IMG/VR virus record: IMGVR_UViG_3300031951_000197
Location: 1-55,578 of that record
Origin: a virus
Lineage: Duplodnaviria; Caudoviricetes
Strand: one strand, 5' to 3'
Length of the DNA stretch: 55,578 nt
Position numbers and translations under genes: made by a program. Below the pieces are notes generated by a model. That model was not told the DNA's origin, ran no database searches, and saw only the letters and a program-made list of their open reading frames with translations. Below, one piece after another: positions 31,601 through 44,574 of the stretch. Each line of letters starts with the position of its first letter. Within the stretch, counting starts at the first letter, position 1.

Positions 31601-32070
31601 AACAAATCTTCGTAACTGTATTTGCCGTAGCCTTCTTCGCTAAACAAATATTTTGCGCTTTGATTTATTAACTGGCCAAACTCTGTTGAAAGTATCGGTT
31701 GCCCTATAAACTGTTCAACGAGGCTGCCTGTTGGTTTTTTTTCTACGCCAGGAAAACCCGTATGGTTAAGGGCAGCCATAGTAAAGTTAATCGTTAACTG
31801 CGGAGCAAAAGATGTTCCCGCCTGAGCGCCTTGAACTGCTGCCTTGAAAAAACTGTATCCCTTACCAATACCAGCGCCGATAAAATCTTCGGCTGCTTCT
31901 GGTGTAAGAAAGTCTGCAACATTAGAAGGGATGTCAACAATTTCTGAACCAACTTTTTTGACAGCACCAGCAACATCTTTAGCGCCATCCCAAATATCGC
32001 CCCAACCAAAAGTTGGGCGTTGCGGCTGATTAAAAAACGCTGGTTTATAGGCTGTTATACCGTTAGACAT
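25648..32070 (-). CDS. 2140-aa large ejection/polyvalent protein with an ART-PolyVal-like domain
   Basis: Size and position typical of podovirus ejection proteins; motifs FHGS, FGPGIYVTDN...A.SY and LGYDGI. Confidence 0.7.
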   Translation of the reverse strand: MSNGITAYKPAFFNQPQRPTFGWGDIWDGAKDVAGAVKKVGSEIVDIPSNVADFLTPEAAEDFIGAGIGKGYSFFKAAVQGAQAGTSFAPQLTINFTMAALNHTGFPGVEKKPTGSLVEQFIGQPILSTEFGQLINQSAKYLFSEEGYGKYSYEDLFGSGFSIRGKAEEEMLKVQQRARPTTSGGLVLTPGRALFGPLTEMGVVEEGSTIYNIGTGITDMAAYLKADPTFSFRDLKRLPGQVKGLYRGAKDMASAFAYSYDDLRKIVPPLTDRLKNYWWGKADDWAARRGQQFVEVLDADGNLIRRVRTERATPAAQQASAQMQELMTNIDTTLVVFNDIEFRATQLAPEVQAKAKSLMRQEGAMFHGSKMVDMGELVAIDDPRYPSTAVNLFGPGIYVTDNPMVATSYLNYKETSPESYFTLVTPSEFSSSYNVELPPGTSRAAPVTAIPGMGDTEAGSITRFQWKEGYQPNLLDGEEPLSLEIIDYINKKFNIPSAPANIIRTMQRFPFDRPTISGPYSLSPYQMLAGEADPFYLHETKSGRRYTELTNYRNQLIDLDSTPQELAKNLSNPNFKLDGFINFDFEKFLYEYSRSPSTAQFVKYDTTSLMAQGAGKGLAGYRTRELGKLGRLLQLNVEEMDYNEFIDIFRRTVPKDYVSPEKFEELQTLFSTESTFSPVRNELKTFQQFAKLLQIDTTGTPLEVGRRYWNAIKENFHAPRPANIGLDADGNFLTDVALNATLKELGYDGIQYAGGIRIGGYGDHTAKVIFNLDNLETVDVLTGERLPVNDVIATMKENNELQSAISNLRGKVDDFYTKYNTQRDIIRDEVGAPYEKTPGRKTLVPTVWEKNRNAPWIQPILQAMAAETDPATIWRIYLRGNAPALALDIAKAKTVDEVWDLVTEAVKRTPTSYVGGVPVGTYNGISELGFAVKQASSRYTRQFQTLPENLFIPFDDMGRGVKRFDDLAGALNMSLAQRNKWTTRLMEIYQSGETGGFFEFSIDFANTIIKPALKAAGISSEEARVIAKFKNTIADVTTMSLRDVAADPSPWHLTGFEGPLRTTQLMSQGMYLFDPTKLRDVIQATGTLGRMARRMENVPIAGQVFKANRFMQKALLQYSSEIWKPSVVIGIKHMLKVVPDEIMRTLLTGTFESPAQWFAAVQAGLFGGAKGKYTADVFGETFNLATDIGNLELDIASLREITEEISKLRKAGKIEKADEMAATFAEELAEYPTKLDELAKLQAKFDSDLPKFTDAMIGNMPEKAIATGTNSYLVGDDIRHGFTTTIQKSDLRFRDEFVAGVAHQTGDMYNNPIYRRVANGRPFDEDKISVPVYDDLGNMKFKNVETLEIETVTKTYGELLKEGNITSDGMQAIEQWILFGAGKEYYLDYFKKLGRKAPGFMADAPDSVAAYVRLVTQEIYQNIGTNQANLDVLATGLFNDQPAFFREPTGRWVAAPEYEDFLGSTYVEAADSANQVLYFPKFQLDKNPMMSGLGKIWDAKNYLVAKYFQGMYGQTSDLLARSPLWRGAYWDAVEATLSTASQEAVDALRASALEAGLPKSKLKRLQFALDQAEARVAQGVTKDGESLEAIDKFANAYATNKTVDTLYDSSKRSLFGYQHQLLFPFFEAFREQAQTYMKFVAQRPELAYWAGLGVSALQGATAIGPGDVDYDGKPEGFLYRNAYGNEVFALPMTGAIARFLTGTPTANYEVSARQMSMIGQIVPGVGFTVQIPLSYFNKLNDPEMSTIAEIIFPMGRPEDRGSIVSALDPRPLWLRRMAPLVGQLAGETPVIGEALKDFTKVIFGNQESTVDYKQYYNKVLQAYSSTIPVIKTEQEMSAVLKEVETKTNILFFMRGLTQAVIASPTTNFMLETKQGDIRVGFLSDKLRQYEDEAEANGANRYDGTAKFLAEYGTSVWALFGNITKSKIPGLQATEEYDRWASANKELLDTFPDVAGYFGPMSGDFSPSAYSRQKYRGMRESTDPRTMLEDAQSQMGYFLVNIAKAGYDVEYLASNEGQSQLRNIKEQVKSLFPFWDGKYGWVESAKRREKQIQQLQEIADSPFAEQSEVGKMVKVYMGLREWYVSEYQAADLGTDWTKNANAEYVRIGLTKAGDELARMVPQFAFVWQNVLAPEFEIGLED

Positions 32071-32341
32071 ATCGCCTCATATTCTTCGAAGGGGCAACAT
32101 TCATCTTTGCCATCCGTTCACCAACTATTCGACCCACTTCTGGAAGAATATCATCTGCATCGTTCAACACTAGGGATGCCAAAATTTGTGCATCCACCCA
32201 CGGATACGCTGCATATGCCTGCCCCAACCTGTCGGCATGGTCCACCGTATACATTTCTGCGTACCGTTTCCTGCGTTCTACCTTTCCTTTTAATTCTTGG
32301 TAGATATCTTGTATGTTGTATTGTCTTGGTTGGCGTATCAT
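32063..32341 (-). CDS. Hypothetical protein
   Basis: 92-aa ORF coupled within the operon. Confidence 0.6.
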   Translation of the reverse strand: MIRQPRQYNIQDIYQELKGKVERRKRYAEMYTVDHADRLGQAYAAYPWVDAQILASLVLNDADDILPEVGRIVGERMAKMNVAPSKNMRRYV

Positions 32342-32700
32342 CCGTTATCCAAAATTTCCAGCAACGCTAAAAGGTTCGGGTTTGGGTACATCGCAGCAAT
32401 AGTGCGTACCCGTTCTCTGATGTCTTGGGCTGAACCTACTGTTGGAACAAATTTGGTTGACAAAACATTTGACCCTGGGCCTGGGCCGAAGTCCATTCCT
32501 GCGGTCATTGGTTCTTGAGGGCGTTCCGTTGGTGCGCCGATAGGGGTTACGGGTGTCATTTCGGTTGGTGGTGTTCCCATTGGGACAGCCCGTTGTGCTG
32601 CTATTTGTTTTCCTGCTTCACCGTAGGTTTGGCCTGTGGCGGCTTTTGCGGCAAGAGTCGCAGGGTTGCGTAAATCTGAACGGTTCGGGTACTCAGCCAT
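32338..32700 (-). CDS. Pro/Gly-rich virion-associated protein after the portal gene
   Basis: GQTYGE...PTERP.EP.TAG..FGPG pattern; position in the head module. Confidence 0.65.
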   Translation of the reverse strand: MAEYPNRSDLRNPATLAAKAATGQTYGEAGKQIAAQRAVPMGTPPTEMTPVTPIGAPTERPQEPMTAGMDFGPGPGSNVLSTKFVPTVGSAQDIRERVRTIAAMYPNPNLLALLEILDNG

Positions 32701-32701
32701 A

Positions 32702-34534
32702 TCATCCCAACCTTCCTGCTAGTGAAAGAACAGAACCTGGTGTGCCTGGTGCTTGGGCTGCGCCTGCCGCACCTGGGCCGCCTGGGCCTAACGCACCAAG
32801 TAACTGGTCAAGTGACGGCTGGCCGCCACCTTGCGTTGGTTGTTCCATGCCCATTCCAGGCATTGACAAACCTGGCATTGTTTCTGGTGCGCCTTGTGGG
32901 GCTTGTGCCGCTTGGCGTTCTTGTGCGCGTTTCTGTGCGGCTTCGATTGCTTCAGCAAGGTTCATTTTGTCTGTTGCCACCATTCTTGCGATATAAGCCA
33001 AATCAGCGGGTTGATATGGTCCATTCGGGTCGGCTGCTTGGGATTGGAGACTGGAAAGCAGGGCTGCTTCCACACCTTCCGCAACGATGCGGTCATGTTC
33101 AAGTTCTGGGTCGGTGATGAGTGGGTCTGCTTCACGGGCCGATTCTTTGGACATAAGTCCCGTACCAAGTCTTTGGCCAAGTCCGACGATGAGGGCATTA
33201 ACATCAGACCCCGACGACGGGTACGAAACATAGTGGAAGTCTGTTTCCCAAATTTTGTTTGGAACATAGTCAACCTTTGCGTTTGTTTGTTTGCCTGCAA
33301 TAAAGAATGATTTGGGTTGGTCACCCCAGTAGGCTTTTTCGATTCCGATAGCGATACGGTCTTCTTCGAAGATGGATGCTTCGAAAATCTTTTGTGCTTC
33401 TTGTACTTTGAAGTCAACTGTTGCTGCCAGTACGGTTTCGCCACGGCGACCTGTACGAATGTTGGATGCGGATTCTCCACCGAATTCTGCGGGGATTCCA
33501 CCTTCGAGCCGTTCTTGGCGTTCGAGGCGGTCCATCGCTACATCGGTTTTGTAACCTGGGTTGGTTTGCAACTGTTGAATGTCGCCACCTTTGACAACAC
33601 CCAACTGTCCTAGTTTGCCGTCTGCGGTTTGGATGATTTCAGGGTTTTCTCCTGGGCGAGCAATCAGGTATTCATCTGGGAAGATACCACGCTCAATAGC
33701 GATTTCGGTGAGGGCTTGGAGCCGTGCGCGGGTGTAGAACATCCCAACCATGTTGTCGAATTGGCCGCGTACTTCGTCGAGGGTGATTCGGCGTGGTACT
33801 ACTGCTAATGGCATACCTGTGCGATTAGGGATGCGCTCCAGTTCCACCGCTTCCATCCAGCCTGTGTCTGAGTGGGTGCCATCGTCAGCGCCCATAGCCA
33901 CAAGCACGAGTTCGTTTCCACAAACATATTCGAGAATTCGGTAACGCGAATCTGCTGTGACTTTACCCATGTTGAGATTGGAGACTTGTGAACCATAGTT
34001 TTTGAGAAGCCACGACGCATCTTTGACATAGGTGAATATTACATTCTCTGGCACAATGTCGTCAGGGTCTTCAGTGAAAGCAGGGTAGGTGTCTAGCGGG
34101 TTGCGTACCTGCCAGGTGGGCATATTCTTTTTGAAGTCTGGTTTCAATACGATTGGGCTGGTGCCGTATGCAAGTAGCAGTCGGGCGCGGCGACGCATTT
34201 TAAGGTCGAAACGGTTGTGGTCCCACATGGATTCCATAGCGCGTTTACGCATACGAGCCATTTTGGCTGATTGTTCCACACCATCTTTAAGGGGTGGGAA
34301 GTATGGGGATGGGAGAACAGATGCTACACGCATAGCCATCTGGTCAATACCTTGGGTGGCCAGGTTTGCTACTGATGCACGGGCGTTACGGTCCAATTCG
34401 TTTAACGGTACGATTAGTTCGCCGCGTGTCATTTCACGGACTTCACGCATACGCTCCATAACTGGTCCCGTAGCCTTTTTACGGGCGGTGAACATCGCCA
34501 CTATTTCTTCGACAGTCCTCATCCAGTTCTCCAC
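32702..34534 (-). CDS. Portal (head-tail connector) protein
   Basis: 610 aa directly after the terminase gene, with a low-complexity Gly/Pro/Gln tail. Confidence 0.8.
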   Translation of the reverse strand: MENWMRTVEEIVAMFTARKKATGPVMERMREVREMTRGELIVPLNELDRNARASVANLATQGIDQMAMRVASVLPSPYFPPLKDGVEQSAKMARMRKRAMESMWDHNRFDLKMRRRARLLLAYGTSPIVLKPDFKKNMPTWQVRNPLDTYPAFTEDPDDIVPENVIFTYVKDASWLLKNYGSQVSNLNMGKVTADSRYRILEYVCGNELVLVAMGADDGTHSDTGWMEAVELERIPNRTGMPLAVVPRRITLDEVRGQFDNMVGMFYTRARLQALTEIAIERGIFPDEYLIARPGENPEIIQTADGKLGQLGVVKGGDIQQLQTNPGYKTDVAMDRLERQERLEGGIPAEFGGESASNIRTGRRGETVLAATVDFKVQEAQKIFEASIFEEDRIAIGIEKAYWGDQPKSFFIAGKQTNAKVDYVPNKIWETDFHYVSYPSSGSDVNALIVGLGQRLGTGLMSKESAREADPLITDPELEHDRIVAEGVEAALLSSLQSQAADPNGPYQPADLAYIARMVATDKMNLAEAIEAAQKRAQERQAAQAPQGAPETMPGLSMPGMGMEQPTQGGGQPSLDQLLGALGPGGPGAAGAAQAPGTPGSVLSLAGRLG

Positions 34535-34579
34535 TATTAGTTTGTCATAGTATAAACCACTAATTGTATTTAGAAATGG

Positions 34580-36565
34580 TTACATCCAAGATGGTCGCCA
34601 CATTCGGGGTGGTGGTTTCACTCCTGTGAGCGACGGTGCGTGTAATTCTGCGAACCAATGTGCCATCACAAGGTCGGTTCCTCGTTTTTTGTCACGGGTC
34701 CAGGTTGTCATTTCGTCTAGGAACGCAAGAGTTTTCCAGTTGTCTCGCATTGTTGGTAGCCGTATTTGTCCTGTGCGCCATAGTGGGGGCAGTAATGCTT
34801 CTACTCCTAGGGTTTCGTCTATTTTGTTGCGGTGAGTGGTGTGTGGTACGACATTAACTCTGTGTAAGGCTTGCCATCTGCGAACAAAATCGTGGGCCAA
34901 CAGGAATCTTTGGGCTGCGTTTACTTCAATTATCCAATGTGTTATTGGATATCCCAGGTTTGCTGACCTGTGTTGCCAGTCATCCATGATTCCTGAGTAT
35001 TCACCTGTGCCAACAGAGTAGCCAAGTAGTTCTTCTGCTGTGAGTTTGCAGCGTTCGAGGTCTATTAGGTATCTGAGGTTTGTTTTGGGTTGGTATAGCC
35101 ACCATTGAACAGCCCAAAATTCGGATGGTGAAGGGTCTACAGAGGCAATAGAAATTATTGGTTGGTGTAGGTGGGGTGGTATGTAGCCTGGTTTTCTGTC
35201 GTTGTCGATGCAGCCTGGGTATTGTACGCCGTCTGAGCCTATTCCGCCTGTGGCCCAGGTTCGTTCGATGAGGTAGTTTCCTGCGTCGAGGTCTTCTTGT
35301 TGGTATACGACTTTGAATTTGTTGGGGTTGGAGTGTCGTATGAACGAAAGGTCTTTCCAGGATAGGCGGTGTGGGTCCAGTAGGGGTCCTTGCGGCCAGG
35401 GTTGGGAATCCCTTCGGCGCGATTTCGGGCCATCATCAAGTTCTTCATAATATGCTTTATAAACCAGGTGGTGATATTTTTTCTTTTTAACTGGTTCTTT
35501 AGTTTGTTGTAGTTTGTCGAGAAGTGTGACATCTTCTCCATCGTAGTCGTCGTCGAAGTCGTCGTATGTTTCTTTGGATAGGCAGTGGGCGTATAGGTCT
35601 GCTGGTCCTAGTCTTTGTCCTACTACTGCTAGTAGGCCGCCTGGGTCTACGCGGGCTTCTGCTACGGAGTCCCAGCGTTCTATGAGTTTGTCTCTGGCTG
35701 CGGATTCTTTGGCGTTTTCTGGGCCTGCCACATCGTCGAATAGGCATAGGTCGGCGCGGTGTCCGATGAATTCTGCTTCGATTCCGTATGCGGATACGGT
35801 TGGTTCTTTGTTGTCTAGACCGCCGACACCTAGTTGTTCGACAATGAATTCTTCTGCTCGCCATAGGCCGCCGCTGGCTGCTGGTTTGAATCTGCCGTAG
35901 TCGTGGGCGAGGCAGGCTTCAGCGTTTAGGGCTAACCCTTTCTTTACCAGTTCGGGGTCTGGTTCTAGTGGGAAGGGTCGTTCTAAGGTTTCGCGGATTC
36001 GGCGGGAGTATTGTTTGGCCATTGACGCAGAAATAGAACCAATCATGATTCGGATGGCACGGTTTCGTACTATGACCCATACTGCGACATCATGCCATAG
36101 GGTTGATTTGCCTGCACCTGGGGCAACATTGACGACACAGAATTCTTTTTCTGGGGATTCCAACCATTTAACAATCTGTAAGGCAGCGTCTACCTGCCAC
36201 GGTGACGGGACTCGACCCAAATATCTGCGACGGAAGTAGTCGAAATCTTCTAAACCGCGTTTTGCTTCGTCTGATAAATCACCGTATTGGCGTACTGCTG
36301 GTAAGTCTATTGCTTCGGTGATGGCTTGTTTATATGCGTCAGCGTCGCGGCCACCAGTTACTTTAGATTTGCGTACCCCTAGGTCGGCTGCTTTTATTTC
36401 TGCCCCTACTTGTTTGGCTTTAGCATCCCATTTTTGGCCTGTGTTGACATGGATGCCAACCATCGCTGAGGCTTCTTTGATGGTTAGGCCGCTGGAGCGT
36501 AAGGCAAAAAACTTGGCACGGATTTCTGCTGGCAGTTTACGTCTGCCCGAAAACTCATTGCCCAT
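34580..36565 (-). CDS. terL: Terminase large subunit with N-terminal HTH
   Basis: Walker A APGAGKST, Walker B LFDD, YQQ, nuclease SVDPS and DLVMA motifs. Confidence 0.9.
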   Translation of the reverse strand: MGNEFSGRRKLPAEIRAKFFALRSSGLTIKEASAMVGIHVNTGQKWDAKAKQVGAEIKAADLGVRKSKVTGGRDADAYKQAITEAIDLPAVRQYGDLSDEAKRGLEDFDYFRRRYLGRVPSPWQVDAALQIVKWLESPEKEFCVVNVAPGAGKSTLWHDVAVWVIVRNRAIRIMIGSISASMAKQYSRRIRETLERPFPLEPDPELVKKGLALNAEACLAHDYGRFKPAASGGLWRAEEFIVEQLGVGGLDNKEPTVSAYGIEAEFIGHRADLCLFDDVAGPENAKESAARDKLIERWDSVAEARVDPGGLLAVVGQRLGPADLYAHCLSKETYDDFDDDYDGEDVTLLDKLQQTKEPVKKKKYHHLVYKAYYEELDDGPKSRRRDSQPWPQGPLLDPHRLSWKDLSFIRHSNPNKFKVVYQQEDLDAGNYLIERTWATGGIGSDGVQYPGCIDNDRKPGYIPPHLHQPIISIASVDPSPSEFWAVQWWLYQPKTNLRYLIDLERCKLTAEELLGYSVGTGEYSGIMDDWQHRSANLGYPITHWIIEVNAAQRFLLAHDFVRRWQALHRVNVVPHTTHRNKIDETLGVEALLPPLWRTGQIRLPTMRDNWKTLAFLDEMTTWTRDKKRGTDLVMAHWFAELHAPSLTGVKPPPRMWRPSWM

Positions 36566-36833
36566 AGTTTGCTAGTTTCTCCAATCGGTGTATCTCCGAC
36601 TGTAGTTCACGGTTTTCTGCCCGTAGGCGTTCAATCTCATCAGCGGCTTGACCGTTGATATGCCATGAATCGCAATAATCGCAGTCCAACTTTGAATCCC
36701 GTAGTCGGGTCACAATGTCATCCTGTGTCGCTCTCATATATGCGCCCCGCATCTCATCCCAATCCATCACATCATCCTTCCGTAAATCCCAAAAATTAGC
36801 ACCCGAATACTTCCACCATCGAGGCAACATCAT
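36555..36833 (-). CDS. Hypothetical protein sharing a 32-codon block with 5814-6005
   Basis: 36627-36722 is identical to 5904-5999. Confidence 0.6.
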   Translation of the reverse strand: MMLPRWWKYSGANFWDLRKDDVMDWDEMRGAYMRATQDDIVTRLRDSKLDCDYCDSWHINGQAADEIERLRAENRELQSEIHRLEKLANYGQ

Positions 36834-37269
36834 TTACCCTTCCCGTGTCGTTTCCTATCTAACCACAAAGTCACACCCAGATTCAACAACCCTATAAACC
36901 AGCCAACAAAATATTTCAACAAAAACTCTTTCGGTACCGTTGCATCATACCATCATAGGTGTATCATGTTCCCAGGGTTGAGCCACAGGGTAACCCTTCC
37001 CCTGTTGGCTCCCCACCCTATTTACAATCTGACGAACCACACAAGTGGGGGAGCAAGTCCTAGACCCTGGATGAAACGATGAATACGCCAGGAACGGAAA
37101 CAGCGGCCAGAAATGGGGACCGACCTCTATTCATCAAAACTGCCACAAGTACCCCACCCAGACGGGGGGCGAAAATGATACAGACAGAGGTAACAAGAAT
37201 TTAAGAAATTCAGGTGTCGGCTAAAAACATTTGGTCACGGCCACCTACAGAACAAAACTGTAAAGCGTG

Positions 37270-37520
37270 GGGGGGAACCAAAAACCAGCACCACACCAAA
37301 CAACTACCGCGCCCCTACACGGGGCTTGCTACCAAAAAACCCAAACAACCCACCACACAAGTCCAACCCCCAACCACCCACAAAACAAACAACACACAAA
37401 AACACCAAAAACAACCAACCCCCCTCAAAAGCAAAAACCCCAAACACAACCCAACCAAACACCCGACAACAAAGCACCCCCAGGTGCTGCGTTAGAACAA
37501 CCCCAACCCCAAACAAAACA
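37270..37520. repeat. Extremely strand-skewed C/A-rich low-complexity tract
   Basis: Plus strand almost entirely A and C (caaaacaaac, cccaaccaaac...). Confidence 0.8.
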
Positions 37521-37745
37521 ATGAATATCTCAAAAACCTTATACAATATAGGGGGGCGGGGTGCCTCGGCATATGCCCCAGTTTATGCTATTGTATGTTT
37601 CTGTAATATGGTTACATTGTAACGAAGGAATACTACCGATAGGTAACCTACCGTCAGGTAACTTAGACCCTAATTGTAACGGTACCACAAAAATAGTGAA
37701 AACTTGTTAGGTCTGCCTAACATCCTTTTGTTACTTGTTGGTAAC

Positions 37746-37774
37746 TTGACATGGCTAGTTGTGTGTGGTAGTGC
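37746..37774 (+). promoter_or_regulatory. Early promoter P1 (weak -10)
   Basis: TTGACA-17 bp-TAGTGC with the shared GGSTAGTT spacer motif. Confidence 0.5.
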
Positions 37775-37787
37775 GTACATATGTTCG
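37774..37787. promoter_or_regulatory. LexA (SOS) box-like site
   Basis: CGTACATATGTTCG versus the actinobacterial/Gram-positive CGAAC-N4-GTTCG consensus, one mismatch. Confidence 0.5.
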
Positions 37788-37796
37788 TGTTTGTGG

Positions 37797-37812
37797 TGTG
37801 ACGAATGTCACA
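37797..37812. promoter_or_regulatory. CRP/GlxR-binding site
   Basis: Perfect TGTGA-N6-TCACA (TGTGACGAATGTCACA), 10 bp upstream of the P2 -35. Confidence 0.65.
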
Positions 37813-37822
37813 TGGTTTACTA

Positions 37823-37851
37823 TTGACAAGGGTAGTTGGGGCTAGTAAAGT
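37823..37851 (+). promoter_or_regulatory. Early sigma70/SigA-type promoter P2
   Basis: TTGACA-17 bp-TAAAGT. Confidence 0.8.
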
Positions 37852-37915
37852 AGATTAGGTAAGGTTGAGTGAGTGAGAAGGGCTAGAAGAAATTCTAGGA
37901 ATCTTGCGAATTGAC

Positions 37916-37944
37916 TTGACAAGGGTAGTTAGGTTTAGTAAGGT
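37916..37944 (+). promoter_or_regulatory. Early promoter P3
   Basis: TTGACA-17 bp-TAAGGT, 32 bp before the first early ATG. Confidence 0.75.
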
Positions 37945-37976
37945 CAAAGGGTAAGGGAAATACAAGAAAGGGAAAC

Positions 37977-38147
37977 ATGACTAGGAAAGATTACGAGAAA
38001 ATAGCCGCCGAAATTTGGTTAGTCCGTCTCATGGCTAATAGTGACCAAGTAACTTTAGATAGGGTGGCTAGTTGTTTGGCCGTAGTATTCAAGGAAGATA
38101 ATCCACGCTTCCAGATGGATAAATTTTTAGAGGCTTGTCGATTCTAA
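37977..38147 (+). CDS. First early protein, 56 aa (MTRKDY...DNPRF...FLEAC)
   Basis: Manual translation; GAAAGGGAAA SD; recurrent phage early-protein motif of unknown function. Confidence 0.8.
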   Translation: MTRKDYEKIAAEIWLVRLMANSDQVTLDRVASCLAVVFKEDNPRFQMDKFLEACRF

Positions 38148-38156
38148 CAAGTCTCA

Positions 38157-38201
38157 CCCTTAGTCCGATATAGTCGGCGCAGGCTCATGACCTACTAAGG
38201 G
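38157..38201 (+). ncRNA. Compact three-way-junction (mini tRNA-like) RNA element
   Basis: CCCTTAGT/ACTAAGGG closing stem enclosing CCGAT-ATA-GTCGG and AGG-CTCATGA-CCT hairpins. Confidence 0.5.
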
Positions 38202-38205
38202 ACTA

Positions 38206-38221
38206 TGTTCCACATGGAACA
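38206..38221. promoter_or_regulatory. parS-like palindrome, copy 1
   Basis: TGTTCCACATGGAACA, one base from TGTTCCACGTGGAACA; exact copy at 39381-39396. Confidence 0.55.
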
Positions 38222-38239
38222 TTACAACGAAGGGAAACA

Positions 38240-38395
38240 ATGCTAGAACAATTAGAAGTAACTGTCATTCACGATGACTACCTTATTCTCTATAGGTACA
38301 TAGGTGACGCTAACACTAAATGGCGTAGCATATTCGTGCATGGTGAGGATGAGGCTAAGGAATTTATCGCCACAATTAACGAGATAGGGAAATAG
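38240..38395 (+). CDS. 51-aa early protein
   Basis: Manual translation MLEQLEVTVIHDDYL...; GAAGGGAAA SD. Confidence 0.7.
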   Translation: MLEQLEVTVIHDDYLILYRYIGDANTKWRSIFVHGEDEAKEFIATINEIGK

Positions 38396-38409
38396 AAGGG
38401 AAACAACTA

Positions 38410-38604
38410 ATGGAAACATACATAAGCGCACATATGCGCCTAATAGAAGATACTGACGGCAACATAATCGACGCAGACTATTTCTGTAGCGATTCATGCC
38501 ACCAAAATTATTGCCTAATTTATAAAATACCTTATGAAGGATGGAACGGTTGCCACGAGGTTATGGCACCACAAGTATGCGAAAATTGTAAGAAGGAAAT
38601 TTAG
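38410..38604 (+). CDS. Cys-rich early protein
   Basis: FCSDSC and CENC motifs; SD present. Confidence 0.75.
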   Translation: METYISAHMRLIEDTDGNIIDADYFCSDSCHQNYCLIYKIPYEGWNGCHEVMAPQVCENCKKEI

Positions 38605-38616
38605 AAGGGAAAAATA

Positions 38617-38931
38617 ATGACATACACACAACAACAATTAGAAGAACTAGAGAACTATTGCGACGAGGAGAGGATTCTCTATGACGCATTTAGGGCATAC
38701 CTAGACAACATCCATGACCCAGAAGACTGGGCAGAACATAAAGGAAACTTTGAGGATGATTATGTAGGTGAATATTCTGATGGTGCAGAATTCGCTTATC
38801 AGATAGTGGATGACCTATACAACATTAACGAAGACTTGCGACACTATTTTGACTATGACGCTTATTGGAGAGACTTACTTTATGGTGGCGATTATTGGAT
38901 TAGCGATGACGGCCATATTTTTAGAGGATAA
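38617..38931 (+). CDS. ardA: ArdA-like antirestriction (DNA-mimic) protein, short form
   Basis: Very acidic; YVGEY...EFA...LRHYFDYDAYWRDL...G.IFR matches the ArdA C-terminal signature. Confidence 0.8.
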   Translation: MTYTQQQLEELENYCDEERILYDAFRAYLDNIHDPEDWAEHKGNFEDDYVGEYSDGAEFAYQIVDDLYNINEDLRHYFDYDAYWRDLLYGGDYWISDDGHIFRG

Positions 38932-38949
38932 CTAGAAAGGGAAATAGAA

Positions 38950-39132
38950 ATGGAAACAATATTTAAGGATAAGGAATTCATAATCGTAGTGAAACGAGGC
39001 TTGGAATTTGAGACTTCCGAATTAGACCACGCATTAAAAATTTTTGGTGAATGGTTTTCCAAAGGGTACACAGATACCGTGATTAAGGTTAGGAATACAA
39101 AATTACATTGGGATTATTTAGAAGGGAAATAG
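38950..39132 (+). CDS. Early hypothetical protein
   Basis: ORF with the repeated SD. Confidence 0.7.
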   Translation: METIFKDKEFIIVVKRGLEFETSELDHALKIFGEWFSKGYTDTVIKVRNTKLHWDYLEGK

Positions 39133-39134
39133 AA

Positions 39135-39329
39135 ATGGCATACGGATACTTAAATGACATAATGAAACTGGCACCAAAATATGCACAAGGCTTGGTACTG
39201 ACTTTACAACTACGCCACGCCGAACAATTTAATTCTAAGAGTGATTACCATTTAGGATATCGGCAAGCGTTATCGGATGTCTATGACTTGGCACAAGAAG
39301 AATCTAGAACGGGAAAGGACATTAACTAA
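39135..39329 (+). CDS. Early hypothetical protein
   Basis: Start placed at the ATG after GAAGGGAAATAGAA. Confidence 0.7.
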   Translation: MAYGYLNDIMKLAPKYAQGLVLTLQLRHAEQFNSKSDYHLGYRQALSDVYDLAQEESRTGKDIN

Positions 39330-39334
39330 TAAAC

Positions 39335-39363
39335 TTGACAAGGCTAGTTAGGTAGTGTAAAGT
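39335..39363 (+). promoter_or_regulatory. Early promoter P4
   Basis: TTGACA-17 bp-TAAAGT with the same spacer motif. Confidence 0.8.
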
Positions 39364-39380
39364 AGTTATCAGTAAGGGAA

Positions 39381-39396
39381 TGTTCCACATGGAACA
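39381..39396. promoter_or_regulatory. parS-like palindrome, copy 2
   Basis: Identical to 38206-38221. Confidence 0.55.
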
Positions 39397-39415
39397 ATTA
39401 CGAAGGGAAATAGAA

Positions 39416-39613
39416 ATGGATAAGAAGGTTAAGTGTTCATGTTGTGGCACGATGGTAGATAGTTTGGCTATCTTCCCAAACGATATGTGTTTATCGTGCT
39501 ATGCGATGGAACAAGACGCAAGGGAAAAGGCTATCGGTACTGTCCGATACATGGAAGAATTAAGACTAACAATACTAGGGACATTTGGTAGTCCCGTGAA
39601 GGGAAGGAAATAA
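39416..39613 (+). CDS. Zn-finger-like early protein
   Basis: CSCC...CLSC; SD present. Confidence 0.7.
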   Translation: MDKKVKCSCCGTMVDSLAIFPNDMCLSCYAMEQDAREKAIGTVRYMEELRLTILGTFGSPVKGRK

Positions 39614-39891
39614 TGGCAACGATGAAGGAAATTTATTTAGAGGCTTGGCATAGAGGCTATGACGGAGGCTTGGCAGATAAGGATAAAGGCTATGTCAATG
39701 ACAGTCCTTTATCTGGGGAATGGGCAGGGGAATCTATTCCCGAATTGTTAGGTGACCTAATCACGCAAGCGATGAACACAGGAATTAGTGTGCTAATGGA
39801 TATCGACGAAGACCACATTATTCAGGAATTGTGTGACGAATATGAGGATGGATATTTTGAGGCTAACGATATTGAAAGGGTATACGAATGA
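39613..39891 (+). CDS. Acidic early protein (PLSGEWAGES)
   Basis: ORF coupled by TAATG. Confidence 0.75.
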   Translation: MATMKEIYLEAWHRGYDGGLADKDKGYVNDSPLSGEWAGESIPELLGDLITQAMNTGISVLMDIDEDHIIQELCDEYEDGYFEANDIERVYE

Positions 39892-40073
39892 GTAAGTACA
39901 CAGTGAAAACAACAGAAACTATCTACCATACATATGAGTTTGAGGCCAATTCTGAGGATGAGGTTTGGGATATGTTGCAAAACTTGTCCGATGAACAACT
40001 ACAAAACGATGACCTATATGGTGAACAATTTTTCGAGGTTACAGAAATTACAAAGGAAGGGAATGAAGGATGA
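39888..40073 (+). CDS. Acidic early protein (YTV...EAxSEDE; DpnD/PcfM-like)
   Basis: Paralogue of 40282-40470. Confidence 0.7.
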   Translation: MSKYTVKTTETIYHTYEFEANSEDEVWDMLQNLSDEQLQNDDLYGEQFFEVTEITKEGNEG

Positions 40074-40285
40074 AGGCTAGTGAATTAGCAAATACGGTAG
40101 GGAAGGTAGGCGTACTGAGAGTATCGGGAACAGCACTACTATTTGATGTGAAGGTATGTGACGCACGGTATAGGTACGGCCATCTAGATTATTTGGTGTC
40201 ACCTATCGCTGGTGGTGGTGAGACTTGGCACCAAAGTGACCAAATTACTTTTCACGATACAACTACAGAAGGGATAGAAGGATGA
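40070..40285 (+). CDS. Early hypothetical protein
   Basis: DARYRYG..DYLVSP..G.GETW; translationally coupled. Confidence 0.7.
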   Translation: MKASELANTVGKVGVLRVSGTALLFDVKVCDARYRYGHLDYLVSPIAGGGETWHQSDQITFHDTTTEGIEG

Positions 40286-40470
40286 ATAAATATACGATAG
40301 TTGTAGAAGAAATTATCTTTCACACTTACAAGGTAGAGGCAGTGTCAGAAGATGAGGCTATGCACAAGATAGGTGAATCCCAATGTGGCAACGATGAGTT
40401 TCTAATCGGTAGTCAGGGTACATGGAATACATATTATGAAGTAGAGAATGTAGAAGGGAATGAAGGATGA
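40282..40470 (+). CDS. Acidic early protein, paralogue of 39888-40073
   Basis: Shared KYT...HTY..EA.SEDE and EGNEG C-terminus. Confidence 0.7.
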   Translation: MNKYTIVVEEIIFHTYKVEAVSEDEAMHKIGESQCGNDEFLIGSQGTWNTYYEVENVEGNEG

Positions 40471-40772
40471 TTACTGAGGCTAAAACTATTTGGGAATTCT
40501 TGGAAGAAGAACATCCCAAGGCTAAGGGAACTAATGCGTTGTTTCAATGGTCATTGAATTATGACTACGACATACGACCTTTTAATTTGTTTCTTGACTT
40601 AATCGGATGGTCGGCAGAACATTATGGTTCACCTATCTTTGATATGACTACGGTACATATGACGGTAGGTTACATGGAAGCCGATTATCTGGGTGACGCA
40701 TTGAAGGAATGGGCAGATGACCCACATAGCGTTGAGTCTTGGATTGAAACTCTTATGGGATTAGAGGACTAG
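40467..40772 (+). CDS. Early hypothetical protein
   Basis: 101-aa ORF; translationally coupled. Confidence 0.75.
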   Translation: MITEAKTIWEFLEEEHPKAKGTNALFQWSLNYDYDIRPFNLFLDLIGWSAEHYGSPIFDMTTVHMTVGYMEADYLGDALKEWADDPHSVESWIETLMGLED

Positions 40773-40774
40773 AC

Positions 40775-40966
40775 ATGAAATATATGAATGTGAGTAAGAC
40801 TGTTACCTATGACATCGAACAAGTACGGGAATCCATGAAAGATTTGGGTATGGATTGTGACAGCGATGAGGATTTGATTGCGATGATAGAAGGATTTGTG
40901 GTTGATGATTTTCGTGGTGACAGTAAAGATTTGTATTGGGTAGATGATGAAGGGAACGAATGGTGA
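40775..40966 (+). CDS. Acidic early protein
   Basis: GAGG SD. Confidence 0.7.
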   Translation: MKYMNVSKTVTYDIEQVRESMKDLGMDCDSDEDLIAMIEGFVVDDFRGDSKDLYWVDDEGNEW

Positions 40967-41178
40967 AGATTAGAAAGTATCGTGTGGTGGACTATCGCAA
41001 ATGGGATAGGGCTAAATGCACAGTGTTGGTAGTGTTGGTGGTGGTCACCTATATGATGATGTTGTACGACAACGGTACACATGACAAGATTGGTGTGTCA
41101 TCGTGGGCATTGGTTCCGCTTGTTCCAGCAGGTTTGTTGGCGTGGAATCTTTTTATTAAAGAAGGGAAAAAGAAATGA
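40960..41178 (+). CDS. Two-TM early membrane protein
   Basis: Two hydrophobic segments; SD present. Confidence 0.65.
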   Translation: MVKIRKYRVVDYRKWDRAKCTVLVVLVVVTYMMMLYDNGTHDKIGVSSWALVPLVPAGLLAWNLFIKEGKKK

Positions 41179-41366
41179 TAGATATTAACTACAACAAATT
41201 ACAGGAAGCCTTGTGGCAAGCAGAAAGAGCATTGGGTGACTGGGTTATGTGTGGCTATTGTGACGATAGCGCATTGTCCATACTGCGTACATTGAAGTTA
41301 GACTTGGAATACGCACACAAAGCGTGGTCTAATTTGGACACTGTTACGATTATTGTGGAACGGTAG
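41175..41366 (+). CDS. Early hypothetical protein
   Basis: SD and ATGA coupling. Confidence 0.65.
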   Translation: MIDINYNKLQEALWQAERALGDWVMCGYCDDSALSILRTLKLDLEYAHKAWSNLDTVTIIVER

Positions 41367-41379
41367 AAGGGAAACGGAC

Positions 41380-41493
41380 ATGAACGACAGTCACACTTGG
41401 GCAGAATACGAAGGGGATGTGGTCTGCATAGTATGTGATAGCAGGCCATGGGGAAAGTCTGCGAAGGAACCATGTGAATCGGAGACTGAGTAA
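41380..41493 (+). CDS. 37-aa Cys/His microprotein
   Basis: MNDSHTWAEYEGDVVCIVCD...; GAAGGGAAA SD. Confidence 0.55.
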   Translation: MNDSHTWAEYEGDVVCIVCDSRPWGKSAKEPCESETE

Positions 41494-41740
41494 AGTCTTA
41501 GAGGTTACCATCCGAAGATACCCCAAGTCAGTCTTACCAATACCACGCATACTGTTCATAGCAGTACGGCAACATGGTGATGTGGTCATAGGATATTGGG
41601 CAGGGTATCATCCACGAAGGAAACACACACGGCTGGTGACCAAAGACAAAGCGTGGTGTGCGAGCAGACGGCAGATGAAATCGGCAATCAAAGGAAACAA
41701 CCTAGAAGGTTATCTGACTGTTCGTTTCTGTTGTATAGAA

Positions 41741-41968
41741 TTACTTGGTGTAAGGTTTGCGCCACACAGAAGGTGAATGGTTGTCCTCTACTTGTTGGCG
41801 TGTAATGTCATCCTCGTACAGTCTGATGATATGGATACATGGGTCATTACCGTTCAACCATTGTTCTTCTTCCGCTGGCGTTTCTGGCATACCGTCATGC
41901 GTGTAACACACAGCAGGGCCACACCATCCACTATCCATCCCGTACTGTAGCCAGTCAAGGTAATTCAT
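41741..41968 (-). CDS. Conserved phage protein, homologue of 4027-4278
   Basis: GWCGPAVCYTHDGMP...DPCIHIIRL. Confidence 0.8.
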   Translation of the reverse strand: MNYLDWLQYGMDSGWCGPAVCYTHDGMPETPAEEEQWLNGNDPCIHIIRLYEDDITRQQVEDNHSPSVWRKPYTK

Positions 41969-41979
41969 CTTCTTGCGTT

Positions 41980-42381
41980 TCATTTTGTTCCTTTCTTGTA
42001 AGACTTAATGCGTTGATAGTTCGCTGACACACAAGGCTGGCAACGGCAACCTCGTGTCCACATCGAGCGTGTACCATGCACAGCAGTACCGAACGACTGG
42101 GTGGAGTAGCGACGGTACTTGCGTTCCGCTGGTGTTTCCCCTGCCCACATACCGAACGGTAGGACATCTGGTTGTGCTTCTTGTTCGTCACAGTAGGCAC
42201 GGCATTGTTGCACCACGGGACATGACGCACATATCGCACGGGCTGGTCGCCATGCGGCGACACTGTTCCCTTGAATCTCAGGGAAGAATACTGTTGTTGG
42301 TACCCCTAGGCAGGCTCTTGCCCGTCTCCAGTCGAATTTTACGGCGTTCAAGTTGGCGTTCACGAGGAGACATACCCCCAA
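41980..42381 (-). CDS. whiB: WhiB-like protein fused to an HGT...GCRC..C motif
   Basis: AC...CASCPVVQQC and GMWAG; start uncertain. Confidence 0.8.
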   Translation of the reverse strand: MGVCLLVNANLNAVKFDWRRARACLGVPTTVFFPEIQGNSVAAWRPARAICASCPVVQQCRAYCDEQEAQPDVLPFGMWAGETPAERKYRRYSTQSFGTAVHGTRSMWTRGCRCQPCVSANYQRIKSYKKGTK

Positions 42382-42610
42382 ATAATCCGTGTGCTATATA
42401 GTTTTCGATTGCGTATTGTCGGCAGTCCAACAGTACGGGGCAGGTGTCGCATAGTTTTCTCCCTTCACGGTATGCGTCTTTGGTGTCTGCGTCTGAGAAA
42501 AAGTAGTAGGTTGGTGCATCTATGCAGGCTGCGTGTTTAGTCCACGGGCCTGCTTTTTTGTACAGTATCGGTAGTTGATACGGGTCCTCAGAAGGGTTCG
42601 TCTGTTCCAT
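42278..42610 (-). CDS. whiB: WhiB-family regulator
   Basis: AAC...CDTCPVLLDC and GLFGG.S..ER. Confidence 0.85.
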   Translation of the reverse strand: MEQTNPSEDPYQLPILYKKAGPWTKHAACIDAPTYYFFSDADTKDAYREGRKLCDTCPVLLDCRQYAIENYIAHGLFGGMSPRERQLERRKIRLETGKSLPRGTNNSILP

Positions 42611-42971
42611 ATTGCACCGTTCCCTTGGCTGGTTGGGTGCCTCGTTCGCTGACGGCGACATCATATTTAACTGACACACCTACTTCGTTGGCGATGATTT
42701 GCACACGATAGTTTTTCTTGCCATCTTTTTCGTAACTGGTTTTTTCCAGTCTGCCGATGACAATAACTCTGGTTCCTTTGGGGCATGACGCTGCGATGTT
42801 TTCTGCTTCGGCTCCGAACGCTACACAGTCATGCCATGTTGTTTCTTTTTCTTTGTCTGCGCCTTTAAGCATGGTGGTGCCGACTGAGAATGACAGTACG
42901 GCTTTGCCTGCTTGGCTGAATCGAAGTTCGGGTTCTTGTCCGATGTTACCTACGATGTGAATGTTGTTCAT
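42588..42971 (-). CDS. ssb: Single-stranded DNA-binding protein
   Basis: OB-fold SSB with DEPF tail; start placed at ATG 42971. Confidence 0.95.
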   Translation of the reverse strand: MNNIHIVGNIGQEPELRFSQAGKAVLSFSVGTTMLKGADKEKETTWHDCVAFGAEAENIAASCPKGTRVIVIGRLEKTSYEKDGKKNYRVQIIANEVGVSVKYDVAVSERGTQPAKGTVQYGTDEPF

Positions 42972-43108
42972 TGTTCCTTCTTGGTTAGTGGCAGGTGCCT
43001 GTTTGCTTTTTTCTTGCAGGAGTGCGACGGCGGTTCTAAGGGTGTTATGTAAAGAGTGATGTTTTGTCCACATGATTTACATTCCCATTCTGTTTTCACC
43101 GTTGTCAC
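42968..43108 (-). CDS. 46-aa Zn-ribbon-like protein
   Basis: WECKSCGQNITLYITPLEPPSHSCKKKANR; homologue of 3564-3704. Confidence 0.7.
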   Translation of the reverse strand: MTTVKTEWECKSCGQNITLYITPLEPPSHSCKKKANRHLPLTKKEQ

Positions 43109-43668
43109 CCCCAATAGATTTCGTAAGTTGGTTCTCCAGCATACTTCAGGCAGTTGTTGTTTGACAAGCCTTTTGGTGGTATGAATTTGCCTGCCTGGGT
43201 TGTGTACCCGTATATGGTTTTGCGTAAGTAGATAACTTTTTGTTGGTCGTAGGTTGTTTCGTTAGCCCAGAATGTGCCTGTGAGTTCGCGGCCACCGTAG
43301 TACTCGAAGGTTCCCGACCCGTTGGCCGTTGTCCAGAATCCAAACGCTCCACGGAATGTGGCATTGGGTCCGTATGCTTCGCTTGCGTTGCCGATGTGGG
43401 CGGGGTCTTGGCTCGTTTCGCATTGTGCTATCGCTTCCATGAATTTGTGGGTGAAGATTTGTTTCCCTAAGAATTCTTTGTACGGGTTGTTGATGAGGTC
43501 CCATATGTGAATGAGTTGTGCGCCAACTCTGTAGGTTTCAGCCAGGTTTTCAACTTGTGGGTTGGGTGCTGGACTGGTGGGTGCTGTTGCTATGTGGGCT
43601 TCAGCAGTTAGGTTGCTTGCCGCAAACAGGGCGACGGTTAGCAAGATGGTCTTCCGTAAACGAGTCAT
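43105..43668 (-). CDS. Secreted Rpf-like lytic transglycosylase
   Basis: Signal peptide ending A-E-A; IAQCETS...TFEYYGG...TYDQQ; homologue of 4275-4832. Confidence 0.7.
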   Translation of the reverse strand: MTRLRKTILLTVALFAASNLTAEAHIATAPTSPAPNPQVENLAETYRVGAQLIHIWDLINNPYKEFLGKQIFTHKFMEAIAQCETSQDPAHIGNASEAYGPNATFRGAFGFWTTANGSGTFEYYGGRELTGTFWANETTYDQQKVIYLRKTIYGYTTQAGKFIPPKGLSNNNCLKYAGEPTYEIYWG

Positions 43669-43688
43669 TGAGACTCCTTTCGTGAATG

Positions 43689-43895
43689 TTAGATATCGAA
43701 GCGGAACTTAGATTTTTCTAGTTCTAGTGCGGCGGTTAGTAAGCCGATGGTTGATGTTGCTCGCTGGTTTTCCAGGCCAGTAAAGATGAGGTGGTCTTCA
43801 CCTCTGTCGTCTACATAGTTTACTACAAGGGTGTAGCCGACTATGACTCCAGGGATTTCTTCGGAGATTGCGTCGAGGATGAAGTCGTTATCCAT
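43689..43895 (-). CDS. Hypothetical protein
   Basis: 68-aa ORF. Confidence 0.6.
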   Translation of the reverse strand: MDNDFILDAISEEIPGVIVGYTLVVNYVDDRGEDHLIFTGLENQRATSTIGLLTAALELEKSKFRFDI

Positions 43896-43912
43896 TCATG
43901 TACCCTAGCAGG

Positions 43913-44056
43913 TCAGTCCCTGTACTGCCATTCGGCGAGGTCTGCTCCGTCTGGGCCGTTGTCGCAGACACATTCTTCTTCTTCACATTCTTCGCAGGGT
44001 TCGTCACCGTTTCCTTCTACTATGTTGAGTAGCCAGGTGTCGTAGTCGGTTCCCAT
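43913..44056 (-). CDS. 47-aa acidic Cys-rich protein
   Basis: Manual translation MGTDYDTWLL...CEEC...CVC; GAAGGGA SD. Confidence 0.55.
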   Translation of the reverse strand: MGTDYDTWLLNIVEGNGDEPCEECEEEECVCDNGPDGADLAEWQYRD

Positions 44057-44080
44057 TGTTAGTCCCTTCTATTAGTGGTG

Positions 44081-44242
44081 TTAATCTTTTTTACTAAGTA
44101 ACGCTGATAGTGCTTCTTCTGCGTCGATTACTTTCTGTTGTATCCACGGGTCTGCTGATGCGACATGGCGAATGACATCACGGATGTTCACAAGTGTTTG
44201 TCTTGGTACAGCAACGGTGCGTGGTGGCCGTTTGGTTGTCAT
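44081..44242 (-). CDS. 53-aa hypothetical protein
   Basis: Manual translation; ATGA-coupled to the resolvase gene. Confidence 0.5.
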   Translation of the reverse strand: MTTKRPPRTVAVPRQTLVNIRDVIRHVASADPWIQQKVIDAEEALSALLSKKD

Positions 44243-44574
44243 GTTCGGTCCTTCTTAATTTCGTTCAACAATATTTCGAGTGGCATGACAGCATACCATT
44301 CTGCTGGGTTGGTTGTGCCTTTCTTTTTGGCGACAACAAATCCAAAGTCTGCGTTTGCGTTTACCATTTCTTGTTGTAGTTCTTTGACCCATTCTGCGAG
44401 TGTAAGTTTGGCGTGGTTCTTCACCTCGATAACTACACCTGGGATTCCTGTGATGTCACCTTTGTCGTTGATGCCGTGAAGCGCACGGCGTTCAGCGTGG
44501 ATGAATCCGTTGTCTTGCAGGTAGCGCACGACTGCTGTTTCTGCTGCTGTGCCTTTGGCTCGTTGTTTGCTCAT
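44239..44574 (-). CDS. Holliday junction resolvase-like nuclease
   Basis: KGTAAE...DKGDI...EVKN. Confidence 0.8.
   Translation of the reverse strand: MSKQRAKGTAAETAVVRYLQDNGFIHAERRALHGINDKGDITGIPGVVIEVKNHAKLTLAEWVKELQQEMVNANADFGFVVAKKKGTTNPAEWYAVMPLEILLNEIKKDRT

Follow-up and report, generated by a model that had tools for sequence, protein, structure and literature searches.

The early leader and its setting

The 55,578-bp stretch of caudoviral DNA considered here (IMG/VR record IMGVR_UViG_3300031951_000197, classed as linear and without end repeats, and called the window in its full length) carries, between two divergent operons, a non-coding leader in which palindromes resembling the operators of several host transcription factors lie among tandem promoter-like sequences, and which probably serves the cis-regulation of the early genes. 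The minus strand of the window encodes the large terminase, the portal, the major head protein, a collagen-like tail fibre and RecE/RecT-like proteins. On the plus strand, a run of small open reading frames (ORFs), among them the gene for an ArdA-like anti-restriction protein, extends from 37977 to about 41950. Three WhiB-family genes are present, all on the minus strand (3701-4030, 41980-42381 and 42278-42679), and therefore an actinobacterial host is indicated; the latter two are adjacent and overlap by about 100 bp where the early and leftward operons converge. The intergenic region spans 36834-37976, with the terminase operon on one side and the ArdA-containing early operon on the other, and its 1.14 kb replace the "about 220 non-coding bp" given by a first-pass annotation of this sequence.

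All seven palindromic sequences listed in that annotation are found in the window, with the coordinate of one of them off by a single base. This is the iron-box-like site, whose resemblance to an IdeR/DtxR box stands, as GTTAGG-N4-CCTAAC is matched exactly (GTTAGGTCTGCCTAAC), and whose core lies at 37706-37721; its symmetry axis (7-bp arms, 4-nt spacer) could accommodate just a single dimer. A pattern scan of the window likewise places the site at 37774 one mismatch from CGAAC-N4-GTTCG, as had been proposed, and the CRP-type palindrome TGTGA-N6-TCACA at 37797-37812 is exact and the sole exact copy in the window. The description of the palindromes as unrelated does not hold, as four of them have a GTAAC/GTTAC half-site in common, which occurs seven times in 37501-37800 against 0.65 copies expected per 300 bp. 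The second-densest cluster of this half-site (six in 300 bp, 22201-22500) falls within the major head protein gene, in its 5' part, and contains GGTAAC-C-GTTACC.

Table 1. Coordinates of the features in and around the leader
Feature	Position	Strand	Remarks
Large terminase gene	34580-36565	-	PHROG 38, E 2.5e-56
ORF, 92 residues	36555..36833	-	Directly upstream of the large terminase gene; left border of the non-coding region
Conserved non-coding element A	37213..37276	.	Begins GGTGTCGGCTAAAA; blastn matches to 15 related loci
C+A-rich low-complexity spacer	37277..37530	.	Between elements A and B; equivalent tract in relatives, sequence variable
Conserved element B	37541..37590	.	AT-rich TATA-type stretch, G/C run, then GTGCCTCGGCATA
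Palindrome GTTACA-T-TGTAAC (GTTACATTGTAAC)	37611..37623	.	Half-site as in GTTAC-N6-GTAAC, spacing shorter
Two head-to-tail 15-bp units CTACCG-N3-GGTAAC (CTACCGATAGGTAAC, CTACCGTCAGGTAAC)	37633..37662	.	Each two mismatches from GTTAC-N6-GTAAC
Iron-box-like (IdeR/DtxR-type) palindrome TGTTAGG-TCTG-CCTAACA	37705..37722	.	7-bp arms, 4-nt spacer
GTTAC-N6-GTAAC, exact (GTTACTTGTTGGTAAC)	37730..37745	.	Abuts the P1 -35 hexamer; match to a FadR-like (TetR-type) operator of beta-oxidation genes
Predicted promoter P1, TTGACA-17 nt-TAGTGC	37746..37774	+	Diverged repeat copy, 69% identical to P2
LexA-box-like CGTACATATGTTCG	37774..37787	.	Over the predicted P1 start; starts at the last base of the weak predicted -10
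CRP/GlxR-type palindrome TGTGACGAATGTCACA	37797..37812	.	10 nt upstream of the -35 hexamer of P2
Predicted promoter P2, TTGACA-17 nt-TAAAGT	37823..37851	+	
Palindrome CTAGAA-GAAA-TTCTAG (CTAGAAGAAATTCTAG)	37883..37898	.	17 nt upstream of the -35 hexamer of P3; absent from the first-pass list
Predicted promoter P3, TTGACA-17 nt-TAAGGT	37916..37944	+	Overlaps TTGACTTGACA, as in L310 and L312
First early ORF, 56 residues	37977..38147	+	Also the first gene after the leader in L060, L308, L310 and L312
ArdA-like anti-restriction gene	38617..38931	+	PHROG 2059, E 3.7e-11; Pfam ArdA, E 9e-12
Predicted promoter P4	39335..39363	+	Fourth repeat copy, internal to the early operon

Predicted tandem promoters

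A family of promoter-like repeats, missing from the first-pass annotation, begins at 37746 (a diverged copy), 37823, 37916 and 39335. The repeat, TTGACAAGG(G/C)TAGTT...TAAAGT/TAAGGT, has three matches against none in 100 shuffles, in addition to the diverged copy. The leader had been regarded as one promoter with many inputs; it appears instead to hold three tandem promoters, each with its own flanking palindrome. P1 together with the LexA-like box can be aligned with a host promoter that precedes a DUF222 gene, at a score of 55 against 15.2 +/- 2.5 in shuffled sequence (0 of 2000 shuffles), although the similarity is short. The host counterpart, a chromosomal promoter that likewise has a LexA-type box, lies at about 1440-1500 of locus L204 (genome G043) and agrees in 45 of 54 aligned columns. 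When viral contigs were scanned with the promoter 15-mer, 98 single matches were returned, none of them related to the window by blastn.

Recurrence in related phages

Relatives of the phage are represented by 80 loci kept out of 284 terminase-related IMG/VR stretches, to which all counts over 80 loci refer. Full-length relatives measure 38-40 kb, and three of the five that were checked are classed as having direct terminal repeats. In nucleotide comparisons of their leaders, only elements A and B can still be aligned; these two are 197-421 bp apart in 32 loci. A 14-mer of element A is found with up to two mismatches in 52 of the 80 loci (hand count), its start at 37213 coincides with a branch point of Logan contigs, and some related contigs end within the zone formed by A, B and the leader. 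Elements A and B may be linked to packaging or to genome ends.

When 29 unique related leaders (11.1 kb) are compared with the remainder of the same loci (368 kb), exact sites occur in the leaders only: CGAAC-N4-GTTCG is present 11 times in 6 of the 29, GTTAC-N6-GTAAC six times in six and TGTGA-N6-TCACA three times in three, with no copy of any of them in the rest. With up to one mismatch, leaders and remainder hold 16 and 18 LexA-type, 12 and 12 GTTAC-type and 4 and 4 CRP-type sites, which corresponds to about 30-fold more per kb in the leaders. An iron-box pattern with an N5 spacer gave one site against four in the control and was replaced by the N4 form; iron-box-like sites are also present in L060, L068, L310 and L312. 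CTAGAA-GAAA-TTCTAG has just one look-alike with one mismatch (in L024) among the 80 related loci.

The composition of individual leaders varies around the same kinds of sites. The closest relative, L002, with a terminase identity of 90%, carries a double GTTAC unit along with two CGTACAGGTGTTCG boxes, and doubled GTTAC units are found in L009, L036, L049, L063 and L069 as well. In L060 and L068, three LexA-type boxes, two iron-box-like sites and one CRP-like site follow in a row; L060 has at most four LexA-type boxes, of which one lies over the first start codon and three are far upstream. Three further loci, L308, L310 and L312, were retrieved independently via the first early gene. In L310 the order is LexA-like, iron-box-like, CRP-like, promoter, which is the order seen in L060 and L068, while L308 has the exact LexA-type form and no iron-box-like site at up to one mismatch, and L312 has no CRP-like site at that threshold, its CRP-like site having two mismatches. 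The first-pass annotation had proposed to check whether related phages keep leaders with such sites; they do, with copy number varying.

No early-gene cluster tracks the LexA-like or GTTAC sites among the relatives. One protein cluster (40467-40772 in the window, also in L060 and L068) co-occurs with the iron-box-like and CRP-like pair, which maybe reflects relatedness only.

Matching operators in actinobacterial genomes

Actinomycetota genomes were sampled via a WhiB alignment and searched with each of four patterns, the pattern read backwards serving as control; site totals were counted by hand and include genomes flagged as unpublished, with totals that exclude these given second. All four patterns are enriched 3- to 9-fold over the reversed controls in the sampled genomes. 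GTTAGG-N4-CCTAAC is found 162 times against 25 in the control, in 101 of 401 genomes (143 against 25 without unpublished genomes), and GTTAC-N6-GTAAC 131 times against 43, in 73 of 121 genomes (128 against 41). For CGWACA-N2-TGTTCG the numbers are 141 against 15 (forward rows), in 42 of 61 genomes (126 against 14), and for TGTGA-N6-TCACA 101 against 12, in 25 of 41 genomes (83 against 11). A narrower, over-specific CRP pattern was uninformative, with three sites against one in the control.

The genes beside these sites are coherent for several of the patterns. Seven of the eight host loci scanned for the iron-box pattern (from the first ten listed) adjoin metal-uptake-type genes, the neighbours including a ZIP transporter, SBP_bac_6 (four loci), Peripla_BP_2 (two loci) and a siderophore-interacting protein; one HMGL-like locus is unrelated. 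In the case of the GTTAC pattern, 8 of 12 host loci, a selected sample picked for phage-like spacers or doubling, are at beta-oxidation-type genes: divergent acyl-CoA dehydrogenase and TetR genes in L188, L189 and L191, acyl-CoA dehydrogenase in L197 and L198, electron transfer flavoprotein (ETF) in L199 and an Fe-S/CCG oxidoreductase in L192 and L193. In three of these eight loci a -35 hexamer lies within the operator spacer, and a 16-mer of phage L002, GTTACTTGACGGTAAC, is identical to sites in two of these GTTAC host genomes. The GTTAC-N6-GTAAC sites, which the first-pass annotation had left unexplained, thus match an operator found at beta-oxidation genes adjoining a TetR regulator, and the double unit at 37633-37662 resembles the double operator of the relatives and of the host acyl-CoA dehydrogenase/TetR promoters. 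A reading of the GTTAC sites as targets of a GlnR/AfsQ1-type response regulator was set aside, as the host sites are extended palindromes adjoining a TetR gene.

In L192 (2051-2091, genome G079) and L193 (2072-2112, genome G121), double GTTAC-N6-GTAAC sites 25 bp apart stand before the large Fe-S/CCG-domain oxidoreductase gene, which suggests a conserved TetR-type fatty-acid regulon in Actinomycetota.

For the CGTAC variant of the LexA box, four of six hand-picked host loci are at lexA (L205), at an ORF containing ruvA (L201) or at DUF222/HNH genes (L203, L204), the other two having no clear context, and the 14-mer in front of the ruvA-containing ORF of L201 is identical to the LexA-like box of the window. 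The idea that the palindromes are look-alikes of host regulator operators therefore draws support from the enrichment in host genomes and from the contexts of the LexA-type and iron-box-type sites.

A cis-regulatory model and its alternatives

The reading that fits these observations best is that the leader is a cis-regulatory region in which host regulators act on tandem early promoters, to which we assign a probability of roughly 60%. In this model, host RNA polymerase would start early transcription rightwards from the sigma-70-type promoters P1, P2 and P3, with P4 following at 39335, and each of P1-P3 would be flanked by a different host-type operator. At P1, a FadR-like TetR-type site would abut the -35 hexamer and a LexA-type box would cover the predicted start, with an iron-box-type site and further FadR-like units upstream; P2 would have the CRP/GlxR-type site centred near -53, and P3 the palindrome upstream of it. 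Host regulators for DNA damage, metal supply, fatty-acid catabolism and cyclic AMP (cAMP) could then gate or boost individual promoters, and the promoters in tandem would amount to an OR gate, with the early genes, including ArdA, staying on across host states. Promoter firing, binding by host proteins and the sign of each effect are predicted from the sequence.

The strongest evidence on mechanism is the spacing between the CRP-like sites and the predicted promoters (pattern TTGNNN-17-TANNNT). The gap from the CRP-like site to the -35 hexamer is 10 nt in five pairs (the window, L060, L068 and the second sites of L310 and L312) and 20-21 nt in three (L308, L310, L312), so that all eight pairs, from six phages, fall into one of two classes, with the site centred at about -53.5 or -63.5 from the predicted starts. 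As these gaps are one helical turn apart, an activator facing RNA polymerase would fit, whereas a decoy has no need of such phasing. The first-pass annotation had proposed that the array works as a decoy, a sponge, an entry ratchet or a shield of the genome end; with three promoters that each have a site, CRP phasing in eight of eight pairs and one to four sites per kind, these mechanisms are not favoured.

A number of points weigh against the cis-regulatory reading. The excess of palindromes claimed for the leader is there, but it is modest: with arms of at least 5 and spacers of 0-10, 37600-37860 contains seven against 3.32 +/- 1.82 in dinucleotide shuffles, a number that 50 of 1000 shuffles reach, and palindrome density overall is only modestly raised in leaders (4.16/kb against 2.51/kb elsewhere). 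Most related leaders are without any of the four kinds, and 19 of the 29 are without a LexA-like site. The double units at 37633-37662, with two mismatches each, overlap no predicted promoter, and the arrays of two to three LexA-type boxes in L002, L060 and L068 are far upstream of the promoter; such off-promoter sites would suit titration, looping or roadblocks as well as occlusion. What a phage lacking integrase and repressor would gain from repressor sites at its early promoters is not obvious. The predicted promoters are no more than consensus matches, a generic scan of 36500-42200 gives 16 promoter-like sites against 13.2 +/- 4.4 in shuffles, and the -10 hexamer of P1 (TAGTGC) is poor and maybe decayed. 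On the host side, the sample is phylum-wide, two of the context sets are hand-picked, the raw count of the CGTAC variant is near chance by a rough estimate, so that its contexts are its sole support, with the box in the window one mismatch away, and a genome-wide DNA search of five sampled host genomes with the leader gave no match at E up to 1.

The kinds of palindrome are stronger evidence than their number. The region 37600-37860 contains the top tile among 1107 tiles of the window, and although each of the four motifs taken singly is weak (window-wide, at up to one mismatch, 4 sites against 1.14 expected, 4 against 1.54, 1 against 0.07 and 3 against 2.79), the best match of every motif kind falls inside the roughly 110 bp of 37706-37812. 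The case for an array beyond chance follows from this clustering of the best matches together with the recurrence in relatives and in host genomes.

The same sites could act in trans as a DNA sponge, in which the sites of the replicating phage soak up scarce host repressors and effects on phage promoters are secondary. LexA, the IdeR/DtxR regulators and the TetR-type fatty-acid regulators are repressors, so three of the four regulators would be of a type whose removal turns on functions useful to a phage, and titration of LexA, the iron regulator and the fatty-acid TetR regulator would derepress SOS, iron-uptake and beta-oxidation genes. Such a role would account for the double units at 37633-37662 and the LexA-type arrays directly after element B in L002, L060 and L068, all of them off promoters, as well as for a copy number per kind that varies among relatives while the kinds persist; domain searches of the window also found no phage-encoded regulator. 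Titration of transcription factors by decoy sites is established in cells and synthetic systems, as far as the accessible parts of two reports describe it (PMC8599769, PMC7826281). This explanation nevertheless seems doubtful, as the window holds only one to four sites per kind in one leader, no exact site occurs elsewhere in 368 kb of related phage DNA, the CRP-like site is helically phased to the promoter in all eight pairs, and the sites at 37730 and 37774 flank P1 in the manner of classical operators. Titration also depends on the copy numbers of regulator and genome, and a literature search on decoy sites yielded no natural phage example among the papers listed. A combined form, in which a multi-specific sponge works in very small freshwater actinobacterial cells with few regulator molecules while the sites also tune the phage's own early promoters, is similarly tentative. 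If titration did take place, the phage would gain active iron uptake, beta-oxidation and SOS recombination and repair with no need of an auxiliary metabolic gene.

The operators might have no function at all and merely decay beside promoters that are under selection, the leader being a mosaic of captured host promoter-operator cassettes. The alignment of P1 and the LexA-like box with a host promoter, the degradation of the P1 -10 by the loss of one nucleotide, the imperfect LexA-like box and double units of the window, and the identity of the L002 16-mer with host operator sites that hold a -35 hexamer are all in line with such an origin. We consider it unlikely, as the same kinds in the same order persist in phages with terminases about 70% identical whose leaders have diverged beyond alignment, exact consensus sites, common in leaders, are missing from the other parts of these loci, and promoter phasing is preserved; the similarity of P1 to the host promoter is, moreover, short and has no genome-wide BLAST counterpart. 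Quite improbable is a role of the palindromes as sites for phage proteins or another DNA transaction, such as origin iterons, terminase recognition or a genome-end structure, with a mere resemblance to host operators. The array does adjoin the strongly conserved elements A and B beside the terminase operon, most early ORFs are without a known family, so an unrecognised DNA-binding protein could be among them, and the cluster at 40467-40772 accompanies the iron-box-like and CRP-like pair. Four kinds of palindrome would, however, require several phage proteins, each kind is an operator class at coherent regulon genes in actinobacterial chromosomes, no gene cluster follows the LexA-like or GTTAC sites across relatives, and no HTH_3 or S24 domain is found in the window. 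As for a leader that enters the cell first and whose coat of regulators pulls the genome in or guards its end from nucleases or sensors, the sites lie about 50-250 bp after element B, a possible mark of the genome end where some related contigs also terminate, and tandem host-type promoters followed by an anti-restriction gene recall the leading end of T7. Such a function is nevertheless very hard to credit: no sequence feature speaks for ratcheting, contig ends are about equal downstream (23 of 80) and upstream (29 of 80) of the terminase gene by a hand count, and if entry were T7-like, RNA polymerase at P1-P3 would suffice without regulators.

The first-pass statement that the phage has no integrase or repressor agrees with searches that found no tyrosine integrase, no HTH_3 (Cro/CI-type) domain and no S24 peptidase in the window, serine recombinases not having been searched for; nor was sigma-70 region 4 found in the window. 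Among ten early ORFs scanned, only ArdA matched Pfam and no DNA-binding domain was seen, although absent family matches in small, fast-evolving early proteins are weak evidence.

The locus and the assembly

The region 36600-38400 is present in 20 public runs, which come from 17 studies and are for the most part metagenomes of lakes and other fresh waters. Logan contigs cross the leader zone (X1 at 35043-39319; X4 at 36627-37242 and 37213-42415; X14 at 36467-37697), X1 and X4 being possible source samples of the record, and therefore the local sequence is not an assembly artefact. As a whole, the record probably follows an assembly path that joins two related phages and does not represent one genome: compared with relatives of 38-40 kb, its 55.6 kb amount to about 1.4 genome units, and the leader zone is internal to the contig. 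A module of tail fibre, glycosyltransferase, metallophosphoesterase and RecE genes is present in two diverged copies (about 64-75% nucleotide identity), at 3600-17300 and 42800-55578.

The 92-residue ORF at the left border of the intergenic region has no PHROG or Pfam family above threshold and has a 36-residue stretch in common with the 63-residue ORF at 5814-6005, which lies downstream of RecT. The stretch is encoded by a 108-bp repeat, 97% identical between 5892-5999 and 36615-36722, and contigs of run X4 also connect 44498 to 36615. Between the portal and head genes, a 2140-residue ORF occupies 25648-32070 on the minus strand. It was considered as a virion RNA polymerase, in which case the short-loop palindromes would become candidates for hairpin promoters, but it has no Pfam match, one weak PHROG match of unknown function and no PDB sequence match, which is not evidence either way. 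Nucleotide searches of a phage collection with 37200-38200 and with 30000-50000 gave no match, and searches of the window for tRNAs and Rfam families found none.

Comparison with known systems

The nearest known system is the Bacillus thuringiensis tectivirus GIL01, in which, according to the accessible parts of two reports, host LexA occupies SOS boxes of the early promoter P1 (PMC4551915, PMC6182141). As far as these sources describe it, GIL01 resembles the phage of the window in having no classical CI-type repressor, has several host LexA boxes in its early promoter region that place its transcription under the host SOS regulator, and differs in being a temperate linear plasmid-prophage that needs the phage co-factor gp7 and encodes a LexA homologue for its late genes. 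In the window, by contrast, there is no sign of lysogeny, no S24/LexA-like gene is found, the LexA-type site is one of four kinds, and the indicated host is actinobacterial.

In the early region of T7, the tandem host-polymerase promoters A1-A3 are followed by the anti-restriction gene 0.3. The window shares with it the tandem sigma-70-type promoters in a non-coding leader and the presence of an anti-restriction DNA mimic, here ArdA, among the small early genes driven by them, and its terminase is distantly related to T7-group terminases over the N-terminal third. We know of no host regulator operators in the T7 leader. In addition, the structural operon of the window runs in the opposite direction and no phage RNA polymerase was found in it. 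The iron box for DtxR at the corynephage beta tox promoter and the PhoB and NtcA boxes of cyanophages are further cases in which a host-type operator lets a phage promoter respond to a host global regulator. These are single regulators on accessory genes, whereas the window has up to four classes on the main early promoters, in a combination that recurs across the family.

Among cultured phages, E7 and F5 of 'Ca. Planktophila' (Nanopelagicales) are freshwater actinophages of about 39 kb with whiB, a glycosyltransferase and an ArdA-like protein, as described in the accessible part of the report (PMC10202952), and are thus similar in size to the relatives of the window. The terminase is 24% identical over 76%, and both encode a sigma-70 factor according to the same part of the source (PMC10202952), while none is found in the window. 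E7 (L322, OX376640.1) has two exact TGTGA-N6-TCACA sites, at 1435-1450 and 2477-2492, in an ORF-poor stretch (1359-3157); with up to one mismatch allowed, sites of the LexA, iron-box and GTTAC-N6-GTAAC types are absent from it, save one LexA-like match at 33179.

Clustered operator sequences, both natural chromosomal ones and synthetic decoy arrays, can titrate regulators, as the accessible parts of three reports indicate (PMC8599769, PMC7826281, PMC3322331). Such decoy arrays consist of many copies of one site that are not tied to promoters, whereas the leader has few copies of several kinds that are positioned on promoters. Among the papers listed by literature searches, none describes a natural phage operator array for several host regulators, or a phage decoy. 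To our knowledge, all known cases of such control involve a single regulator and concern either temperate phages or accessory genes.

Implications

If the cis-regulatory reading is correct, apparently lytic phages of abundant, mostly uncultured freshwater Actinobacteria would start infection via promoters that sense at least four host signals, namely DNA damage, metal supply, fatty-acid catabolism and cAMP. The element responsible would be 400 bp long and testable, with a clear phasing prediction, and E7, as a distant cultured relative, could be an experimental entry point. If titration were to contribute, the leader would be the first natural candidate for testing the regulator-sponge idea. 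Beyond this family, phage leaders of this kind could reveal the operator grammar of uncultured hosts and thereby aid host assignment.

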